NCBI GenBank assembly: GCA_964410585.1
Contig: CAYPFW010000002.1
Location: 78,207 to 142,206 of the forward strand
Length of the DNA stretch: 64,000 bases
Reading direction: 5' to 3'
Source of the DNA: an uncultured archaeon
Lineage (GTDB): Archaea > Aenigmatarchaeota > Aenigmatarchaeia > QMZP01 > JACQNV01
Position 1 is the first letter of the stretch. Every line of letters begins with the position of its first letter. The notes under the pieces are model-generated. The model saw only the letters and a program-made list of their open reading frames with translations, did no database searches and was not told the DNA's origin. Shown here in pieces: positions 1 to 59,850 of the stretch. The position numbers and the translations under genes were made by a program.

Positions 1-672
1 AAAAATCCAAGAAAAACATTACCGAAAGCGCTTGTAATTTCATTAATAATATCAACAATACTTTACATTTTAGTTTCTGTGGCATCTGTAGAAATTTTAG
101 GTGCTGAAAAACTGGCAGCATCAAAGGCTCCTTTGACAGAAGTTGTCACCAAAGCCATACCAAATGCCTCTCTCTTAATGTCTATAATTGCTTTGTTCGC
201 AACTGGAAATACTGTGCTTATTATCCTTATAGTTGTTTCAAGAATTCTATATGGAATGTCAAACCAACATTCCCTTCCAAAATTCTGTTCAGCTGTTGGA
301 AAAAGAGGAACTCCATATGTAGCAATAGCTCTTGTAGGTATAGTTACAGCTTTGTTTGCGGCTTTAGGTAACCTTAAGCTTATAGCATCAGTGACTGATT
401 TAGGTGTGTTTATTGCATACTTTTTTGTAAATTTGGCACTGATAAAATTGAGGTATAAAAAAGGATATATTGGAAGTGGTTTTAGGAGTCCGAGCATTGG
501 AAGGTTTCCTATCCTGGCTCTTTTTGGTTTGATAACATCAGTTATATTGTTTTTCTATTTTGATTTGTATGTTTGGTTTTTGGAACTATTATCAATAGTA
601 TTAGGATTCATAATCTATAGAGCTTTCAAAAGGAATCAGAAATACAAGTTATCTAAAAGATTTAGCACATGA
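1..672 (+). CDS. Amino acid permease (APC family), C-terminal part; the 5' end lies outside the window
   Basis: The open frame runs from position 1 (no stop) to 672. The product is polytopic and hydrophobic with a C-terminal layout typical of an APC permease (e.g. ILIIVVSRILYGMS, FIAYFFVNLALIKLRYKK). Confidence 0.6.
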   Translation, partial: KNPRKTLPKALVISLIISTILYILVSVASVEILGAEKLAASKAPLTEVVTKAIPNASLLMSIIALFATGNTVLIILIVVSRILYGMSNQHSLPKFCSAVGKRGTPYVAIALVGIVTALFAALGNLKLIASVTDLGVFIAYFFVNLALIKLRYKKGYIGSGFRSPSIGRFPILALFGLITSVILFFYFDLYVWFLELLSIVLGFIIYRAFKRNQKYKLSKRFST

Positions 673-1074
673 GCTGCAGCAAAAGGCAAATGTTTTAGAT
701 TTTATTTTTTTTCTATAGCCGCCCTGATAAACCTTGCATGCGCAGTGTGCGCATTCTGTGAGTTTTGGTTCAATTGCAATTTCTATAAGATTGTCAAATT
801 TTGCCAGCAAATTTTTTACAAATGCTCTCCCCTGTGGAGTTAGAGTATATATTTTTTTATCTCTGTTACCTAGATCCTTTGAGAGTATGTATCTTTCGTT
901 TTCAAGCTTTCTCAAAAATGGATAAACGTTTCCGGCACTTATTTTTTTCTTCAACCTGCCTTCAAGGTTTTTGATTATTTCGTATCCATGTTTTGGTTTT
1001 TCGTTCAATAGAAGCAAAGTGTAAAGTTTAGTCAAACTCGTCATGTTTTCTAGAGAATCCTTTGTCCTTACCAT
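649..1074 (-). CDS. PadR-family winged-helix regulator fused to a C-terminal TRASH/YHS-like metal-binding domain
   Basis: The N-terminal region matches the PadR signature (KHGYEI...NVYPFLRKLE). The C-terminus CAHCAC-x19-FCCSSCAKSF matches the TRASH pattern C-x2-C-x19-C-C-x2-C. The gene is divergent from copA. Start chosen at the Met at 1074; alternative starts are 1044 or 1152. Confidence 0.6.
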   Translation of the reverse strand: MVRTKDSLENMTSLTKLYTLLLLNEKPKHGYEIIKNLEGRLKKKISAGNVYPFLRKLENERYILSKDLGNRDKKIYTLTPQGRAFVKNLLAKFDNLIEIAIEPKLTECAHCACKVYQGGYRKKIKSKTFAFCCSSCAKSFR

Positions 1075-1201
1075 AGAATAATATGGGAACCTTTTTATAT
1101 AAGCTTTCAAAATATAATATATCAAAATATGATATATATTAGTGGTTGTCAAGTTGGATGACTCTCTATTGTTGTGTAGAAAATGGTAAAATCATAGTCA
1201 T

Positions 1202-3538
1202 ATGACAACGGAAAAAGTCCAAATCAGGGTAGAGGGCATGCACTGTGCTAGCTGCGCAGCTAAAATAAAATCTGCTTTAAAAAAGGTTGATGGAATAAAA
1301 AATTCAAACGTAAATGCGCTTACTAAAATTGCGCTTGTAGAATTTGAAAGCAAAAAAATTGATTCTCATAAAATTATTAATTTGATAAAAGGTCTTGGTT
1401 ATAAACCTTTTCTAGAATCAGTAGACCAAGGTTCCACTGCCACAGATCCTGTTTGTGGAATGAAGATTGAGAAAAGTAAGTCAATAAAAAAAGAATTTGC
1501 TGGAAGAATATACTACTTTTGCTCTGAGGAATGTGTCAATAAGTTTGAGTCGCCTGAACAGGAATTAAAAAAAATGAAAAGAAGGGTCACAGTAGCCCTT
1601 TCTGGTGTGCTTTTCCTCGGAATAATTCGTGTAATAGCAATGTTCGCTTTGGCTGCAGGTGCCTCAATTGTGACATGGGTTCCAATACCAAGTCTTCCAT
1701 ATTTCACTTGGGGTGTTTGGCTCTTTTTGATAACAACGCCAATCCAGTTTATCGGTGGTTGGGGATTCTATAAAGGCGCATACACAGCTTTGGTGAACAA
1801 AAGAATAAACATGGATATTCTGATAACAATTGGTACTCTAACAGCTTACATATACAGCGTTTTTGTTGTTTTCTTCCCAAACGTTTTGCCTGTAGACGAA
1901 ACTAATGTTTACTTTGAAGTTTCTGCTGTCATAATAGCTTTTGTTCTGCTTGGAAAATTTATGGAAGATTATATGAAAAGAAGGACGTCTGCTGCTGTCA
2001 GAAAATTAATGGATATGCGGCCGCAGACTGCAACAGTGATAAGAAATGGGAAGGAAAAAGAAATTCAGGCTGACCAAATTGTTGTCGGTGATATAATTGT
2101 TGTAAGGCCTGGGGAAAAAATACCAACGGATGGAATTATAGTAAGTGGATACACTTCAATAGATGAGTCAATGGTGACAGGAGAGAGCATACCAGTTGAA
2201 AAAGAAAAAGGCGATGAAGTCATTGGTGCGACTGTGAACAAGCATGGTTTGATAAAATTTGAAGCGACAAAAATTGGTGCAGAAACGACATTGATGCAGA
2301 TTGTGAAAATGGTTGAAGAGGCCCAGGGATCGAGTGCGCCAATACAAAGACTTGCAGACAAAGTTTCCAGCTATTTTGTGCCAGCTGTAATCGGAATTGC
2401 TGTTTTGTCATTTTTAGTTTGGTATTTAGTTTTAGGTAACTTCACTCTTGGTCTTCTATCGTTTATAGCTGTTTTGATAATTTCTTGTCCATGTGCTCTG
2501 GGGATAGCGACACCTGCGGCGCTTATGGTTGGTGTTGGAAAAGGAGCAGAGAGCGGCATTTTGATAAGAGGTGGAGAGTATTTGGAACGGACACAGAAAT
2601 TGAACACGATTATTTTTGACAAAACAGGAACACTAACAAAAGGGCAACCTGTTGTCACTGATATTGTTTCAGAAAGCCCAAAAGACTTGATCAAGTTTGC
2701 TGTAATCGCAGAGAAAGGTTCAGAGCATCCTCTTGCAGATGCAGTAATGGAAAAAGCAGAAGAGATGAAAATAAAAATCCCAGACGCTGATAGGTTTGAG
2801 GCTGTTCCAGGGCATGGTGTGAAAGCTATTTTTGGAAAGAACAAGATATTTGTTGGAAACAGGAAACTGATGGCCAAAAATTCAATAGATATCAAGGCCT
2901 TTGAAAAAAGGATGGAAGGCCTGGAAAGTGAAGGGAAAACTGTGATGTTGGTTTCTTTGGATAAAAAAGTTCTGGGAATTGTTGCAATTGCAGACACTTT
3001 GAAAGAAACGTCGAAGGAAACAGTAAAACAGCTTTCTGATTTGGGTGTTCAAACAATTATGTTGACGGGCGACAATGAGAAAACAGCTAAATCAATTGCA
3101 AAAAGTGTTGGAATAGAAAATGTGATAGCAAATGTTTTGCCTGGAGAAAAAGCTAATGTTGTGAAAAAAATCCAAAAAGAGGGCAAGGTCGTTGCAATGG
3201 TTGGAGATGGGATAAATGATGCGCCTGCTTTAGCCCAAGCAGACATAGGAATAGCAATTGGTTCTGGGAGCGATGTTGCAAAAGAGACAGGTGGAATAAT
3301 CCTTGTAAAAGATAATCTTCTAGATGTTGTAACAGGTATCAAGCTAAGCAAGGCAACAATGAGAAAAATAAAACAAAATCTATTCTGGGCATTTGCCTAC
3401 AATGCAGCTGCAATACCAATCGCAGCTTTTGGAATGCTGAACCCAATAATAGCTGCAGCAGCAATGGCCTTGAGCTCGCTTACAGTTGTTGGAAATTCTG
3501 CGCTTCTGAAGAGGTATAAAATAAGAGTTGAGAATTGA
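1202..3538 (+). CDS. copA: Copper-exporting P1B-type ATPase (CopA-like) with an N-terminal HMA domain and a YHS/TRASH domain
   Basis: HMA motif [15 protein letters not shown]; YHS/TRASH motif DPVCGMKI...[12 protein letters not shown]; membrane CPC motif (SCPCALG); phosphorylation motif DKTGTLT; GDGINDAP hinge. Length 778 aa. Confidence 0.9.
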
Positions 3539-3593
3539 GAAGTTGGATATATAGTATTGTATATCAGAGTCTATCAATAACAATAAACAAGTA

Positions 3594-3715
3594 TACAGCG
3601 TGCACCAACTATAGTATCTAACATATGACTTGGATATTGATTAGTAGTTGAAACCAATACACAGCGTGCATCAATTAACAGCTCACCTATGCCACAACAT
3701 GCGTTAGATACTATA
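3594..3715. promoter_or_regulatory. Repeat-rich intergenic region between the convergent copA and a His-rich protein gene: two direct repeats ACAGCGTGCA(C/T)CAA and an 11-bp inverted repeat TAGTATCTAAC / GTTAGATACTA
   Basis: Direct repeats at 3594-3609 and 3659-3675. Inverted repeat arms at 3612-3622 and 3703-3713. The location is 3' of both genes, so this may be a bidirectional terminator or a small-RNA locus. Confidence 0.3.
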
Positions 3716-3719
3716 TATA

Positions 3720-4313
3720 CTAAGCTGACATAGAGGAATATTCTATTTCTATTTTGTCCTTATCTTTCATGAAATAGTTTTCAAAATCAGTGTTTGGTTT
3801 TCCATTAACAAACATTTTCACGCTGTTTTTGTCGTCGTTGCAGTAGTTAAATATGCAGCTTTTAGTGAATTGTTTTCCCCAGACTTTGAAAAAGAAATCC
3901 AATTTCATGTTTTGTTCTGTTGGATTTTGGTTTTCCAAATGGATAATATTATCTGCTTCATGAGTATGGACAGGCTGGTGAAAAGATGGGCTTAGGCCGA
4001 TATTTGCTGGTATTGTTTGGTCTTGTCCGTTTATTTTTATTGTAAGATGTGGATGCCAATGTATAGGTCCTTTAGGGACATCAGATTCTGATATGACATG
4101 TGTTGTTAAATCACCACTTCCATTGTTTGTAAACGCAAATATGCCAGCTGCAAGCGCAGCTATAACAACTGCAACCATGCCATATTTTAGAAATCCCTTT
4201 CCAGAAATTGAACTAGGTTTTTTAGCTCCTTCAGAATGTTTAGATTGTTTGTGCTGCTCTAAACCTCCCACATGTCCAAACTCCTTATCACATTTATCGC
4301 ATTTGAAACTCAT
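3720..4313 (-). CDS. Hypothetical membrane-anchored protein: N-terminal C2H2-like zinc ribbon, one TM helix, and an extracytoplasmic His-rich domain (possible metal binding)
   Basis: N-terminus CDKCDKEFGH...HKQSKH; one TM segment (MVAVVIAALAAGIFAF); His clusters HWHPH and HQPVHTHE. It sits next to copA. No family assignment from sequence alone. Confidence 0.4.
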   Translation of the reverse strand: MSFKCDKCDKEFGHVGGLEQHKQSKHSEGAKKPSSISGKGFLKYGMVAVVIAALAAGIFAFTNNGSGDLTTHVISESDVPKGPIHWHPHLTIKINGQDQTIPANIGLSPSFHQPVHTHEADNIIHLENQNPTEQNMKLDFFFKVWGKQFTKSCIFNYCNDDKNSVKMFVNGKPNTDFENYFMKDKDKIEIEYSSMSA

Positions 4314-4362: not shown

Positions 4363-5118
4363 CTAATTTTTGTTTTCGTATTTCCTGATTTTAGCTCTTG
4401 CTGATCTGACATGTTTCTTGGTTTTTTGGACAGAAGCTGCGAAAGAATCAGCTTTCCTCTCTTCTTCTGTTCTCAAATGATGGAATTTTACAAGAGTTGA
4501 CATTGGGGAAAGGAACCTAAAAAATGTCAAGGATAGTTTTAGGGCAGATGTCTTCTCTTTTATGTGTGCAAGTTCGTGGAGAATAACAGCCTCTAATTCC
4601 TTCCTATTTAATATATCGAAAAGACCAACTGAAAGGAAGATGGCTGATTTGAAATGTCTGAAGGAAAAGGCAAGCGGATTGGCTTTGTCCAATGCGAAAA
4701 CTTTGGGCGGCCTTATATTTAGGTTTTTAGATGATTTTTTGATGAAACTCAATACCCATCCAGATTTTATCTGCCTCTCATTGTTTGTTTTTACATAGTA
4801 TAGTGGGATCACTATAAACCCAACCAAAGTTGATACCAAAAGCGTTGCAGGGAGCGACAGCAGTAGAAGGTTTACAAAATTGTTTGGTCCAGTATAGCAA
4901 CTAGAAACACAGAGCATGCCGCATGTTGTTTGTGTTGTGAAGAGCATGAGTGGATACAAAAGGAAAACAAGATGGGAATACAAAATAACTATTCTAGATT
5001 TGTTGGAAAAGCTAAGCCTTTTCAGCAAAAAAATAAGCGAAACAGCAAATGATATGGATAGAATTGAAAGTACAATTTTCGCCGGGTCTACAACTAGGCC
5101 AAAAAAACACCCTACCAT
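4363..5118 (-). CDS. BlaR1/M56-like membrane zinc metalloprotease (signal-transducer protease domain, no sensor domain)
   Basis: Several TM helices, then the HExxH motif (HELAHIKE) in the M56/M48 context. It lies immediately downstream of a BlaI-family repressor gene. Confidence 0.6.
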   Translation of the reverse strand: MVGCFFGLVVDPAKIVLSILSISFAVSLIFLLKRLSFSNKSRIVILYSHLVFLLYPLMLFTTQTTCGMLCVSSCYTGPNNFVNLLLLSLPATLLVSTLVGFIVIPLYYVKTNNERQIKSGWVLSFIKKSSKNLNIRPPKVFALDKANPLAFSFRHFKSAIFLSVGLFDILNRKELEAVILHELAHIKEKTSALKLSLTFFRFLSPMSTLVKFHHLRTEEERKADSFAASVQKTKKHVRSARAKIRKYENKN

Positions 5119-5148: not shown

Positions 5149-5206
5149 CGTTTCTCTTTGGGTACGGTATACTTTCTCTTTTTGAAAGAGAAAGGATAGC
5201 TCTACT
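5149..5206 (+). ncRNA. Copy A of a repeated intergenic element: 5' box TTTCTCTTTGGGTACGGTAT, a 10-bp hairpin CTTTCTCTTT/AAAGAGAAAG, and a 3' box GGATAGCTC
   Basis: Conserved ends shared with copies at 45038, 52489, 57647 and (opposite strand) 16098. The hairpin shows compensatory changes (CTC/GAG) relative to copy B (T/A). It lies between the blaI stop and the blaR1 start. Confidence 0.45.
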
Positions 5207-5576
5207 TTGAAAACTTTTCATTAAAGTAAGCGACAGCAGACTTGCCAAATGTGTCTATCATTTTCTCAACAAACTTGTCCATCATTGAATACTCAAAATC
5301 TTTCTTCGAAAGCACTGGTGAGTAAATGTAGTGATAGCCTCCCCTTCCTGGTAGAGCCTTTCTCTTCACTAACTTTTTTTCAAAAAGCCTATCTAAAATA
5401 ACAGCAACACTAGTCAAAGCAACTTTTTGGTCTTTTTTCACAATAGAATGAAGTTCCCTTACTTTTGCAGACTCCCTTTCCCAAAGTGCGTACAAAACCT
5501 TTGCCTCTAGTGGGCTTAGAAAAGCTTCTGCACCTTCTTTTTCAAATCGAATCTTGTTTATTTCCATACTTTTCAC
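5202..5576 (-). CDS. BlaI/MecI/CopY-family transcriptional repressor
   Basis: 124-aa winged-helix protein with the typical family layout (LSPLEAKVLYALWE...LTSVAVILDRLFEKKLVKR). It is paired with the downstream M56 protease. Confidence 0.65.
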   Translation of the reverse strand: MKSMEINKIRFEKEGAEAFLSPLEAKVLYALWERESAKVRELHSIVKKDQKVALTSVAVILDRLFEKKLVKRKALPGRGGYHYIYSPVLSKKDFEYSMMDKFVEKMIDTFGKSAVAYFNEKFSK

Positions 5577-5711: not shown

Positions 5712-6230
5712 ATGAAAAAAGAGACGATAAAGTCAAATGGTCTATTAGACCATACAATAAAGGTGCTAAAAAAGAATTCAAAAACATTTTTAGTAGCCAC
5801 TGTTTTGTTTGGTCTTATATATACATTCATATATGGATTATGGCTTATCCCTGCAATAGGTTTTGGGTTCCATAGAGACTCAGCTGTTACAGTTTTGGAT
5901 TGGGCCTATTTGCCTCTAGTATCGCTGATGTCTGGTTCCTTGGTTACACTAATGAAATATAAATTAAATACAATGAGTACAAGTACAATTGGTGGATTTG
6001 GTGGTGTAGTAGCCGGTTTGGGTGCTGCTTCGTGCCCGGTTTGCCAAGGAGTGACCATAGCAGCTTTCGGTGGAAATATAGCTTTCCTCTCATTCGGCGA
6101 TTTCTCGCCATTTGTTTGGGTCTTCCAAGCAACTGCTGTTTTTATTCTCTGGATATCATTATATTTAACTGCAAATAATCTATATACAAATAATTGCATT
6201 GGGTGCATTTCAGGCAGAAAGCCTAGATAA
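5712..6230 (+). CDS. Hypothetical polytopic membrane protein with a CPVCQG motif
   Basis: About 4-5 predicted TM segments and a Gly-rich stretch GGFGGVVAGLGAASCPVCQG. No confident family. Confidence 0.35.
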   Translation: MKKETIKSNGLLDHTIKVLKKNSKTFLVATVLFGLIYTFIYGLWLIPAIGFGFHRDSAVTVLDWAYLPLVSLMSGSLVTLMKYKLNTMSTSTIGGFGGVVAGLGAASCPVCQGVTIAAFGGNIAFLSFGDFSPFVWVFQATAVFILWISLYLTANNLYTNNCIGCISGRKPR

Positions 6231-13393: not shown

Positions 13394-16105
13394 ATGAAAT
13401 GTCCTTTTTGCAGTCATCCAGAAACAAAGGTTATAGATAAAAGAGAGTCTGAAGAAGACTCAAACAGAAGAAGAAGGGAATGCCTTTCATGTGGCAAGCG
13501 CTTCACAACATACGAAAAGCTTGAGTTAAGCTCATCCAAAAAAGTCGACAAATTAGTGAAAAGAGATGGAAGAATAGCTGATTTTGATGCCTCAAGAATA
13601 GAGTCTGCAATTTTCAAGGCAGCAAAGGCAGTTGGTGGTACTGATAGAGAAAGGGCAAAAAAACTAGCAGACGAAGTAATGGAGCAAGTCAACAAAAAGT
13701 TCCTAGGGAAAAAAGACCTCCCAACAGTAGAAGACATCCAAGACATTGTTGAAAAAGTCCTCATCGAAAATGGTCATGCAAAAACAGCAAAGGCCTACAT
13801 CATTTACAGGCAAGAGCGTGCAGAGCTAAGAAATGAAAAAAGAAGAATCTTGGAAAAAGAAGATGTTGACGATGTTGACAAAGTTTTCGACCTAAATGCA
13901 CTTAGAGTTTTGAAATCCAGATATTTGCGAAAAGACGAAAACGGCAAGCTAATCGAAACCCCAAAGCAACTTTTTACTAGGGTAGCAACACATGGAGCGC
14001 TTCCAGATATTTTGTATGACCCTCAATTATACGACATCTCAAAATCTCAGCAACAGCACCCAAAAGAATCTTTCGATCCAAAAACAAACCACGAAAAATA
14101 CAGCATAGGAAAATACAAACTAAACCAATATCACCTGGATGCTTTCAAAAGAATGTATGATAGGTTCAACAAAAATCACCAAATGAAATTCTCATGGTCC
14201 CAGGTTTTGGAAAAGCTTTCAAAAGGTGAACTAAGTTCTTATGAAAAAAATATCACAGAGTTCTATGACATAATGGTCAACAGACAGTTCATGCCAAACA
14301 CACCGGCTATAGCTAATTTTGGAACAGTTCTAGGAATGGGCTCTGCTTGCTTTGTTTTGGGAATAAGAGACTCAATAGACGATATAATGGAAAAATTAAA
14401 ACATGCAGCAGTCATCTTCAAATCAGGCGGCGGAGTCGGCTACAACTTCTCACACCTAAGGCCTGAAGGCGATTTGGTTTCTTCAACATGCGGTCTTGCA
14501 TCTGGTCCCTTGTCTTTCATGTCTATGTTCGACAAAATGACAGAGGTCATCAAACAAGGTGGTATTCGCCGAGGCGCAAACATGGGAATAATGAACTCAG
14601 ATCACCCAGATATTGAAAAATTCATAACAGCAAAAGCAGGCAACAAGGCCTTCAAAAACTTCAACATCTCAGTAAATATCCAACCAGACTTTTGGCAATA
14701 CTATGAAAAAAATGAGCCCTATCCTTTAAGAAATCCAAGAGACGGAACAGTTGTCAAAACAGTTAATTCACGGATGCTTTTTGACAAAATAGTTTACCAG
14801 GCATGGGAATCAGCAGAGCCAGGAGTCATCTTTTCAGACAAAGTAAATGAATACAATCCTTTATACGAATCAATGGGCCCAATTGAAACAACAAATCCTT
14901 GCGGTGAGGTACTCTTGTATCCAAACGAGTCATGCAACCTAGGATCAATAAACGTCTGGGCTTTTGTCAAAGAAGATGTGGATGGAAATGTTTCCTTTGA
15001 TTGGGAAAACTTAGCCCGCGTCTCTCGGTTAGGAGAAAAATTCCTGGACAATGTCATCGAAGTAAACAAGTGGCCTCTACAAGACATAGAAGACATGGCC
15101 TTGAACACAAGAAAAACAGGCCTTGGTGTCATGGGAGTTGGCGACCTTTTGTATGAATTAGGTCTTCCTTATAATACAGATGAAGGCAGAAACTTCATGG
15201 AGAGGCTGATGGAATTTGTCAACTTCTACTCAAAAGTCGAAGGCATCGAACTTGCAAGAACAAGAGGACCTTTCCTATACTACGACAAAAGCTTCTATTC
15301 TGAAGGTAAGCTTCCTTTTGCTGGTTTCTACGACAAAAAATCCTGGAGAATGGACTGGAACCAAATAGTCGACGGCGTCCAAAAACATGGAGTAAGGAAT
15401 GCATTCACAATTGTCGTCGCTCCAACAGGATCAATATCAATGATAGCAGGCTGCTCTTCAGGCATTGAACCTGTCTATTCTTTGGTTTTCGAGAAAAATG
15501 TGAAAGTCGGTTCCTTCTACTATGTGAATCCTATATTCGAAAAATGGATGAGAAGAGAAGGCTTATTCGACGAAAAACTAGTAGAAGATGTAAATGCAAA
15601 CAAAGGAACAGTCAGAAGAGTCGGCTATATTCCAAGAAAATTCAAGGAAATGTTTATCACAGCAATGGACACAACGCCAGAAGACCATATAAGAGCCTTG
15701 GCAGCATTCCAAAAATGGGTTGACTCATCGATCTCAAAAACAAACAACTTCCCGGCAGATGCAACAGTTGAGGATATGAGACAATCTTATCTCCTTGCAT
15801 ACAAGCTAGGATGCAAAGATGTAACTGTGTTTAGAGACACATCAATAAAGGACCAGGTCTTGGTTTCAGGCGTTAAAAAGTCTGAAAAACACGCAGCTGA
15901 CACTGGTTTGAAACCTCAGTTAGGAAAAGAATGGACACCAGAACAACCAATAGCAGTTTCAACAAGTGGTAGTTTCTACCAACAACCAAAAGTAACTACA
16001 AACTTTGGGGAAAAGCCAAAAGTCTGCCCATCTTGTGGATCTGAAACCAAAAGAGAAGAAGGCTGTGTATCTTGCCCTGGCTGCGGTTGGGGCATGTGTA
16101 GCTAG
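13394..16105 (+). CDS. nrdJ: Class II (adenosylcobalamin-dependent) ribonucleotide reductase NrdJ with an N-terminal NrdR-like zinc ribbon plus ATP-cone and a C-terminal zinc ribbon
   Basis: N-terminus MKCPFCSHPETKVIDKRES...RRRECLSCGKRFTTYE matches the NrdR Zn ribbon; ATP-cone (VKRDGRIADFDASRIESAI). Catalytic core hallmarks: NPCGE (nt region 14881-14941), the LGSIN context, and the C-terminal CPSCGS...CVSCPGCG ribbon. Length 903 aa. Confidence 0.85.
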   Translation: MKCPFCSHPETKVIDKRESEEDSNRRRRECLSCGKRFTTYEKLELSSSKKVDKLVKRDGRIADFDASRIESAIFKAAKAVGGTDRERAKKLADEVMEQVNKKFLGKKDLPTVEDIQDIVEKVLIENGHAKTAKAYIIYRQERAELRNEKRRILEKEDVDDVDKVFDLNALRVLKSRYLRKDENGKLIETPKQLFTRVATHGALPDILYDPQLYDISKSQQQHPKESFDPKTNHEKYSIGKYKLNQYHLDAFKRMYDRFNKNHQMKFSWSQVLEKLSKGELSSYEKNITEFYDIMVNRQFMPNTPAIANFGTVLGMGSACFVLGIRDSIDDIMEKLKHAAVIFKSGGGVGYNFSHLRPEGDLVSSTCGLASGPLSFMSMFDKMTEVIKQGGIRRGANMGIMNSDHPDIEKFITAKAGNKAFKNFNISVNIQPDFWQYYEKNEPYPLRNPRDGTVVKTVNSRMLFDKIVYQAWESAEPGVIFSDKVNEYNPLYESMGPIETTNPCGEVLLYPNESCNLGSINVWAFVKEDVDGNVSFDWENLARVSRLGEKFLDNVIEVNKWPLQDIEDMALNTRKTGLGVMGVGDLLYELGLPYNTDEGRNFMERLMEFVNFYSKVEGIELARTRGPFLYYDKSFYSEGKLPFAGFYDKKSWRMDWNQIVDGVQKHGVRNAFTIVVAPTGSISMIAGCSSGIEPVYSLVFEKNVKVGSFYYVNPIFEKWMRREGLFDEKLVEDVNANKGTVRRVGYIPRKFKEMFITAMDTTPEDHIRALAAFQKWVDSSISKTNNFPADATVEDMRQSYLLAYKLGCKDVTVFRDTSIKDQVLVSGVKKSEKHAADTGLKPQLGKEWTPEQPIAVSTSGSFYQQPKVTTNFGEKPKVCPSCGSETKREEGCVSCPGCGWGMCS

Positions 16106-59763: not shown

Positions 59764-59850
59764 AGCCCCAAGGGAGAATTGAACTCCCAACCTACAGTTT
59801 ACGAAAATCGACATACAAATTCTGTCGCTCTACCATTGAGCTACTGAGGC
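59764..59850 (-). tRNA. tRNA-Thr (anticodon CGU) interrupted by a 15-nt intron at the non-canonical position 30/31
   Basis: Exon 1 = 59822-59850, intron = 59807-59821 (AATTTGTATGTCGAT), exon 2 = 59764-59806. The spliced product has anticodon stem ACAGT/ACTGT, loop TTCGTAA, T-loop TTCAATT, discriminator U. The splice sites sit in 3-nt bulges (AG^A and AT^T) flanking a perfect 4-bp helix CGAC/GTCG (relaxed BHB). Confidence 0.7.

Follow-up and report, generated by a model that had tools for sequence, protein, structure and literature searches.

A PadR-TRASH regulator divergent from copA in an uncultured archaeon is a candidate copper sensor

The regulator-copA locus and the architecture of the regulator

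The stretch of DNA analyzed here, 64,000 nucleotides of contig CAYPFW010000002.1 from an uncultured archaeon of the Aenigmatarchaeota (hereafter the window), carries near its start a small regulator gene that is transcribed divergently from copA, the gene for a P1B-1 copper ATPase. From its N- to its C-terminus, the regulator consists of a PadR winged helix, a predicted dimerization helix and a TRASH-type cysteine module, and the spacer between the two genes holds an AT-rich dyad that resembles an operator. We consider the protein a well-supported candidate copper sensor, and the features on which this assessment rests are collected in Table 1.

Table 1. Features of the regulator-copA locus, in window coordinates
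Feature	Position	Strand	Details and basis
Regulator gene	649..1074	-	141 aa plus stop codon; open reading frame list, Pfam, homologue alignment, AlphaFold2 (AF2) model
TRASH-type module, residues 105-141	652..762	-	TRASH_HVO_1752_C match, fold, profile search
Long helix alpha4, residues 80-104	763..837	-	AF2 secondary structure H80-104
PadR winged helix-turn-helix, residues 20-87	814..1017	-	PF03551 and Foldseek matches
Putative TATA box (TTATATAA, 1095-1102) and B recognition element (BRE; GAAAGC, 1103-1108) of the regulator	1095..1108	-	read from the sequence
Putative copA-side core promoter	1110..1165	+	position only
Predicted operator dyad TATATCAAAATATGATATA	1118..1136		single match in the window, conserved in related loci
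CopA, P1B-1 Cu(I)/Ag(I) ATPase, 778 aa	1202..3538	+	Pfam, NCBIfam TIGR01511, motifs

The open reading frame (ORF) finder called the regulator as 649..1152, beginning at TTG. The sequence places the true start at the ATG at 1074 (MVRTKD...), because homologues have their N-termini at or close to this point, because on the minus strand the TTATATAA box and the adjoining GAAAGC precede it by about 24 nt, and because related loci repeat the same order of dyad, TATA box, ~22 nt and ATG. Since the putative TATA box is only ~24 nt from this ATG, the regulator mRNA is probably leaderless. Measured from the ATG at 1074 to the copA ATG at 1202, the spacer spans 127 bp; an earlier reading of the locus from the sequence alone (the sequence-only reading) had correctly described a divergent promoter region but had given its length as 128 bp.

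That reading had also proposed a PadR winged helix, which the Pfam profile PF03551 recovers with 60 bits against a cut-off of 27 (E-value 2.2e-16) and which is matched by all 25 homologues examined. No Lrp/AsnC and no Penicillinase_R family appeared among the regulator's Pfam matches at E<=1. The AF2 model, built on the 25 homologues, has a predicted local distance difference test (pLDDT) score of 85.6 and comprises the winged helix, a single long helix and a small domain made of two beta-hairpins followed by a helix; the first two elements correspond to the fold of short PadR proteins, that is, a winged helix-turn-helix (HTH) with one long C-terminal helix. The top 25 Foldseek matches in the PDB are all PadR-type winged-helix regulators, including RosR (VNG0258H), TA0346, Rv3488 and LmrR. 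By analogy with these proteins, alpha4 would serve as the dimerization helix, and it ends in a conserved hinge, A-I-E-P-K-L (A-I-E-P-x-L), whose residues A100 and P103 are nearly invariant among the 25 homologues.

The C-terminal module reads C108-A-H-C111-A-C113-x17-F-C132-C133-S-S-C136 (CAHCAC-x17-FCCSSC; C108 to C136 map to 667-753), so that the TRASH-like cysteine pattern noticed in the sequence-only reading is present, with a gap of 17 rather than 19 residues. Its spacing of C108-x2-C111-x20-C132-x3-C136 agrees with the TRASH consensus C-x2-C-x19-22-C-x3-C, reportedly set out by Ettema et al. in 2003, and C113, C133 and H110 are additional potential ligands. No other protein encoded in the window has a cysteine module of this type. 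The best TRASH match in Pfam is TRASH_HVO_1752_C (PF24273; residues 107-141, 23.7 bits, E-value 5e-5), followed by weaker matches to Ta0938 (E-value 0.011) and to ATPase-cat_bd, a metal-binding domain of cation ATPases (E-value 0.44). Among the 25 homologues, 21 match PF24273 at E<=0.01, the family is precomputed on 4 homologues, and domain databases co-annotate PF03551 and PF24273 on a few family members.

When the 43-residue C-terminal domain was modeled in isolation (pLDDT 84), 47 of its top 48 Foldseek matches were eL24/Rlp24 proteins, with query-based TM-scores (TMq) typically of 0.63-0.71 and root-mean-square deviations of 1.5-2.2 Å over 37-40 residues, and the remaining one was the “TRASH domain of ZMYM5” (2DAS); the corresponding E-values are weak (at least 0.03), the domain being short. 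Similarly, a profile search with the module sequence finds Ta0938, which also has FCC-x2-C, together with eL24 and ZMYM5. On this modeled evidence, the module has TRASH spacing and the eL24/TRASH treble-clef fold even though its Pfam score misses the cut-off.

The sequence-only reading had staked its proposal partly on the conservation of the cysteine cluster, and all six cysteines (C108, C111, C113, C132, C133 and C136), as well as F131 and A137, proved invariant in 25 homologues of 44-64% identity, with H110 conserved in at least 90% of them. Of the 63 cluster representatives that score best, 49 retain the TRASH spacing, and the FCC doublet is kept in this wider set. We also considered whether the module occurs as a free-standing unit or with other fusion partners, and rejected this idea: the C-terminal profile search returned proteins of 48-82 aa on short contigs, which we regard as fragments of PadR-TRASH proteins since about half of the ten that we read retain part of the PadR wing or of the dimerization helix.

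Database searches point to a PadR-TRASH family that is real but small. A word-indexed search of 5.8 billion proteins recovered only ~29 full-length relatives, with 43-77% identity and one of them named as a Nanoarchaeota PadR regulator, and a profile search that ran exhaustively through 1.84 billion cluster representatives (clusters defined at 50% identity) yielded 62 clusters at E<=1e-30. According to the genome records, the hosts are Iainarchaeota, Aenigmatarchaeota, Woesearchaeota/Nanoarchaeota, Micrarchaeota and Bathyarchaeota, along with some bins labeled Methanosarcinales; the DPANN and Bathyarchaeota members come from metagenome-assembled genomes. The archaeal origin of the relatives is confirmed by neighboring genes for Spt4, Rpb7, MC1, eIF-5A and Nre. 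The window itself has ~36% GC and many ORFs without a Pfam family, in keeping with a DPANN genome.

The product of copA carries an HMA domain (residues 8-68, positions 1223-1405) followed, as the sequence-only reading had recognized, by a YHS module (residues 81-120, positions 1442-1561, E-value 4e-12), and it scores 595 bits against TIGR01511, for which the cut-off is 397. In the Arguello classification, P1B-1 ATPases are defined by CPC in the fourth transmembrane (TM) helix, NX6YNX4P in the fifth and MxxSS in the sixth, plus DKTGT. All of these motifs are present in the window CopA (CPC, NX6YNX4P and MALSS for the transmembrane signature) and in 13 neighboring ATPases at related loci, and every full-length neighboring ATPase has CPC, NX6YNX4P and MxxSS.

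To place the pair in context, we examined 20 independent loci: the window, 13 from species-representative genomes (L001-L013) and six from further contigs (L082-L087). The sequence-only reading had suggested looking for the co-occurrence of PadR-TRASH genes with P1B ATPases, and such an ATPase stands beside the regulator in 16 of the 20 loci, namely the window, 9 of the 13 genomes and all six further contigs. Within the genome set, the ATPase is full length in L002, L004, L005, L006, L009, L011 and L013 and is truncated where the contig stops in L001 and L008, and L003 and L012 show only HMA/YHS matches. The regulator and copA are usually divergent, and the interval between them often holds a gene for an HMA chaperone or for a two-TM protein of the DUF5676 family. 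The DUF5676 gene lies repeatedly between operator and copA, for example in L002 (6607-6879), L006 (5635-5916) and L008 (2282-2557), where it heads the copA-side transcript; its product is a candidate copper-associated membrane protein. Locus L008 additionally encodes, divergently from the regulator, a 179-aa protein (2769-3308) with Met/Gly-rich repeats (GYGMM, GMMG) that recall Met-rich copper-binding motifs and with a C-terminal TM helix, for which Pfam gave no match.

The predicted operator dyad and the organization of the promoter region

The dyad has its longest perfect arms at 1117-1124 and 1130-1137 (ATATATCA/TGATATAT) and an inner core, ATATCA-N5-TGATAT, at 1119-1135; the sequence-only reading had placed this AT-rich dyad at about 1118-1134. 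Its pattern, TATATC-N7/8-GATATA, occurs once in the 64-kb window and in none of 100 dinucleotide-preserving shuffles. Across the related loci, the exact pattern is found in 13 of 20, always in the promoter region of the regulator or copA and once per locus within L001-L013 (~121 kb). Copies with one mismatch lie in L003, in L012 and in the regulator promoter of L013, and degenerate ones in L083 and L084. A dyad is rightly placed in 13-17 of the 20 loci. The pattern is missing from L007 and L010, the two loci that have no ATPase nearby, a coincidence that speaks for its link to copA.

Several exceptions in the placement and sequence of the dyad are informative. In L002, where the regulator and copA are co-directional, the exact dyad lies immediately before DUF5676-copA, away from the regulator start; similarly, in L013, where copA is 4 kb away, the exact dyad lies immediately before copA and not at the regulator start. 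Locus L087 has TATGTC-N7-GACATA, an A-to-G change that is symmetric in both arms. In L088 and L089, whose regulators are 77% identical to the window protein, the block formed by the dyad and the TATA box is conserved while its flanks have diverged. These three observations argue for a protein-binding site tied to copA rather than for a by-product of promoter composition, and we predict that the dyad is a conserved operator bound by the regulator.

The 8-mer GATATATC forms the right arm of the dyad in most loci. This palindromic half-site is also enriched upstream of distant relatives: the 450-bp upstream regions of 66 more distant PadR relatives contain 86 copies and the other 644 kb contain 4, an enrichment of ~470-fold, which suggests that the half-site is a property of the recognition helix of this PadR clade. 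The 66 loci (L015-L080) are mostly bacterial with a few archaeal ones, and include Gemmatimonadota, Rhizobiales, Acidobacteriota, Cyanobacteria, Chloroflexota and Bathyarchaeota. In them, GATATATC lies 100-350 bp upstream of the PadR match, often in 2-3 copies spaced 12-28 bp apart, and resembles an autoregulatory box that is widely conserved within a single PadR clade. The distant PadR proteins that we read (L043, L060, L073 and L074) have ~190-216 aa and a His/Gly/Arg-rich N-terminal extension, and the His/Gly-rich bacterial loci L060 and L074 have no metal transporter next door.

The arrangement around the dyad recurs as well. On its regulator side comes a TATTTAAATA-type box, often palindromic, and then, after ~22 nt, the ATG; towards the divergent gene, the Shine-Dalgarno (SD) sequence and ATG of that gene start 1-15 nt past the dyad in seven operator sites. 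Given this geometry of dyad, SD and TATA box, a bound dimer would sit between the TATA box and the copA-side start, upstream of the regulator's BRE. In the window, 65 nt separate the dyad from the copA ATG, and A/T-rich candidates for a copA-side TATA box flank or overlap the dyad (AAATATAA at 1110-1117 and ATATATATT at 1132-1140).

Within these 65 nt, a 15-codon ORF (1158-1205, plus strand) begins ~22 nt past the dyad, and its TGA overlaps the copA ATG (ATATGA). It could represent a leaderless upstream ORF coupled to copA translation. As a part of the system it was rejected: the segment is missing in L088 and L089.

Proposed copper response and competing explanations

The reading that we consider probable is that a dimeric PadR repressor covers the putative core promoter of copA and leaves the DNA once its TRASH tail has bound Cu(I) or Ag(I). 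The metal-free dimer would bind TATATC-N7-GATATA in the 127-bp spacer, where the inner ATC and GAT are about one helical turn apart, just upstream of the regulator's own BRE/TATA and within the putative copA-side core promoter, and would thereby block TATA-binding protein (TBP), transcription factor B (TFB) and RNA polymerase and keep the copper pump off. Rising cytoplasmic Cu(I), the presumed effector, or Ag(I) would then bind the Cys/His cluster beside the dimer interface. This cluster hangs directly on the dimerization helix through the A-I-E-P-x-L hinge. Metal binding would alter the geometry of the two recognition helices, so that the DNA is released and copA is transcribed. Four of the cysteines may hold a structural Zn, and C133 with C113 and H110 might, more speculatively, make up a regulatory site or a Cu-thiolate cluster between the subunits. 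What the analysis establishes is the architecture with its fold, the conservation of the cysteine module, the synteny with P1B-1 ATPases, and where the dyad lies and how well it is conserved; binding to the dyad, the identity of the effector and control by repression and release are each predictions.

A number of observations weigh against this proposal. The module's 23.7 bits lie below the 27-bit cut-off of PF24273, the only TRASH family matched, so that the Pfam search suggested by the sequence-only reading places the PadR domain above its threshold and the TRASH profile just below. About one third of the wider family has A, V or S in place of C113. The zinc ribbons of eL24 and MYM fingers are structural, so four of the module cysteines may do no more than bind Zn. 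The arms of the operator resemble TATA boxes, and the window has no SD sequence next to the dyad of the kind that occurs at other loci. Two loci without a nearby ATPase, L007 and L010, have neither copA nor the dyad in the vicinity, and genes of thiol-redox metabolism recur nearby (DsbD-like, AhpC/TSA, DsbA and HMA-DsbD-cupredoxin proteins).

Several of these points feed into other explanations. One alternative keeps the protein, the operator and the metal, and makes the regulator a copper-dependent activator or dual regulator that stays on the DNA and recruits TFB/TBP in its metal-loaded form, in the manner of Pyrococcus furiosus CopR or bacterial CueR. We regard this as rather unlikely, although the position of the dyad directly upstream of the regulator's BRE/TATA is that of the CopR motif at copper-induced promoters (PMC7830388). 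The dyad of L002 likewise lies upstream of a TTTAAATA box before DUF5676-copA. Against activation, in most divergent loci the dyad falls between the shared TATA box and the copA-side SD/ATG, which is the position of a repressor. Moreover, characterized PadR-family proteins are mostly repressors that are released by a ligand. It is improbable, in our estimate, that the cysteine module is just a structural Zn ribbon for folding, dimerization or extra DNA contacts, with another signal or none and a housekeeping link to copA. Its closest folds, eL24 and the MYM zinc fingers, are indeed structural Zn or nucleic-acid-binding modules; nevertheless, C133, and in the near family also C113 and H110, are conserved beyond the four Zn ligands, the partner is consistently a Cu(I) pump, and TRASH mediates the copper response of CopR in Pyrococcus and Thermococcus (PMC7830388).

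The recurrent DsbD-like, AhpC/TSA, DsbA/thioredoxin and HMA-DsbD-cupredoxin neighbors would also fit a sensor of thiol redox or disulfide stress, or of another soft metal (Zn, Cd or Hg), instead of copper. Of the PadR relatives with solved structures, the nearest include RosR, a regulator that acts in oxidative stress, and Rv3488, with entries that contain a ligand; this ligand is not named among the matches listed, and we take it to be a metal (cadmium). Set against this, the only partner that stays constant is a P1B-1 ATPase, whose transmembrane signature is that of Cu(I)/Ag(I) pumps, and the operator tracks copA even where copA is not beside the regulator, for which reasons we give a redox or other-metal sensor little credence. 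Finally, we rejected as very improbable the explanation of the dyad as two back-to-back TATA-like elements of a bidirectional promoter with no operator function. The TATATA-like arms and the AT-rich region between divergent genes speak for it, but conservation includes the inner C/G (ATC...GAT), canonical TATA boxes (TTTAAATA) stand separately beside the dyad, L002 has the dyad before a co-directional copA, the change in L087 affects both arms, and bacterial PadR relatives, which lack TATA boxes, show the enrichment of the GATATATC half-site upstream.

Taken together, the PadR-TRASH protein is very probably a copper switch of an undescribed type. A bolder extension, which we put forward tentatively as a real possibility, is that it is the first representative of an archaeal copper-sensor class of its own, in which a TRASH module with a CC doublet and CxHCxC is mounted on the dimerization helix of the PadR clade with the ancient GATATATC box. 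In DPANN and Bathyarchaeota, such a protein would replace the octameric Lrp-type CopR as a compact dimeric Cu(I) switch, with a second, regulatory Cu(I) site or a bridging Cu-thiolate cluster atop a structural Zn ribbon, and would form the first regulator-operator pair from DPANN.

Genomic surroundings and comparison with known systems

Downstream of copA, a group of putative further metal or envelope genes comprises a protein with a C2H2 finger, a TM segment and His-rich motifs (HWHPH, HQPVHTHE; 3720-4313, minus strand), a BlaR1-like M48/M56 peptidase (4363-5118, minus strand), a BlaI/CopY-family Penicillinase_R repressor lacking the CopY Cys motif and any C-terminal Cys (5202-5576, minus strand), and a membrane protein with CPVC and CIGC motifs (5712-6230, plus strand). 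The spacer 3' of copA (3590-3690) contains two copies, ~65 bp apart, of the imperfect direct repeat ACAGCGTGCA(C/T)CAA(C/T)TA. Farther along, the large subunit of a ribonucleotide reductase (13394-16105, plus strand) carries an N-terminal NrdR-like Zn ribbon before its ATP-cone, an N-terminal fusion that is not known to us. At 87 nt, the tRNA-Lys(UUU) gene (59764-59850, minus strand) is long enough to suggest that it contains an intron or some long insertion, a frequent feature in archaea.

Among characterized regulators, the short (subfamily-2) PadR proteins LmrR, RosR (VNG0258H), TA0346 and Rv3488 share the winged helix with one long C-terminal helix and have, as is predicted for the regulator described here, a palindromic operator in their own promoter region. 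They have no Cys-rich or TRASH extension, however, and they respond to drugs, phenolics or oxidative stress. The half-site described here, (G)ATATATC, also differs from the ATGT-N8-ACAT operator of PadR/LmrR. With the regulator described here, the PadR family would gain a metal-sensing member with a dedicated sensor domain.

A resemblance by analogy only exists with CopY of Enterococcus and Lactococcus, which joins a BlaI/MecI-type winged helix to a C-terminal CxCx4CxC. CopY follows the logic predicted for the regulator described here, in that a small repressor of the winged-helix kind, whose C-terminus bears a Cys cluster, controls a copper ATPase operon from a palindromic box; CopY differs in its Penicillinase_R winged helix, its Cys motif and its bacterial origin. 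The module itself belongs with the TRASH/eL24/zf-FCS/YHS fold (Ta0938, PDB 2FQH; PF24273), with which it has in common C-x2-C...C-x3-C, F-C-(C/S)-x-x-C-x-x-x-F/Y and the treble clef of beta-hairpin and helix, and Ta0938 shares the FCC doublet. Whereas those modules are stand-alone, ribosomal or fused to ATPases, here the module is fused to PadR. For HVO_1752, the namesake of the Pfam family, no role is known, and its deletion had no phenotype (PMC8223754).

A full-text literature search, with most subscription journals outside its scope, returned no description of a PadR protein with a TRASH domain or of PadR and copper in DPANN, in line with the view of the sequence-only reading that the architecture is distinct from that of known Lrp/TRASH regulators. 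DPANN archaea are uncultured or grown only in co-culture, and almost nothing is known about their gene regulation. The locus offers a complete, testable unit in this setting, consisting of a sensor protein, a 19-bp operator, a target pump and ~20 natural variants, including one with a symmetric operator change, and the compact dimer with its short operator could serve as a part for copper or silver biosensors.

The closest functional counterparts are CopR and CopT of Saccharolobus, Pyrococcus and Thermococcus, and VNG1179C of Halobacterium. As already noted from the sequence alone, the archaeal copper regulators described so far are of the Lrp/AsnC-TRASH type (PMC7830388). These proteins likewise have a C-terminal TRASH domain as the presumed metal sensor, a gene divergent from copA, a motif next to the BRE/TATA and a role in copper homeostasis (PMC7830388, PMC3595675, PMC4236453), the last of these being a prediction for the present regulator. 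In contrast, they possess an Lrp/AsnC HTH and form octamers that wrap ~150 bp of DNA, whereas the regulator described here has a PadR winged helix with a single dimerization helix, a compact 19-bp dyad, and a TRASH module with an extra CC doublet and CxHCxC. By this comparison, it would work like CopR without the defining Lrp/AsnC feature, and we do not count it as a member of the CopR/CopT group. The joining of TRASH to a second, unrelated DNA-binding scaffold supports the idea that TRASH is a portable metal-sensing cassette.

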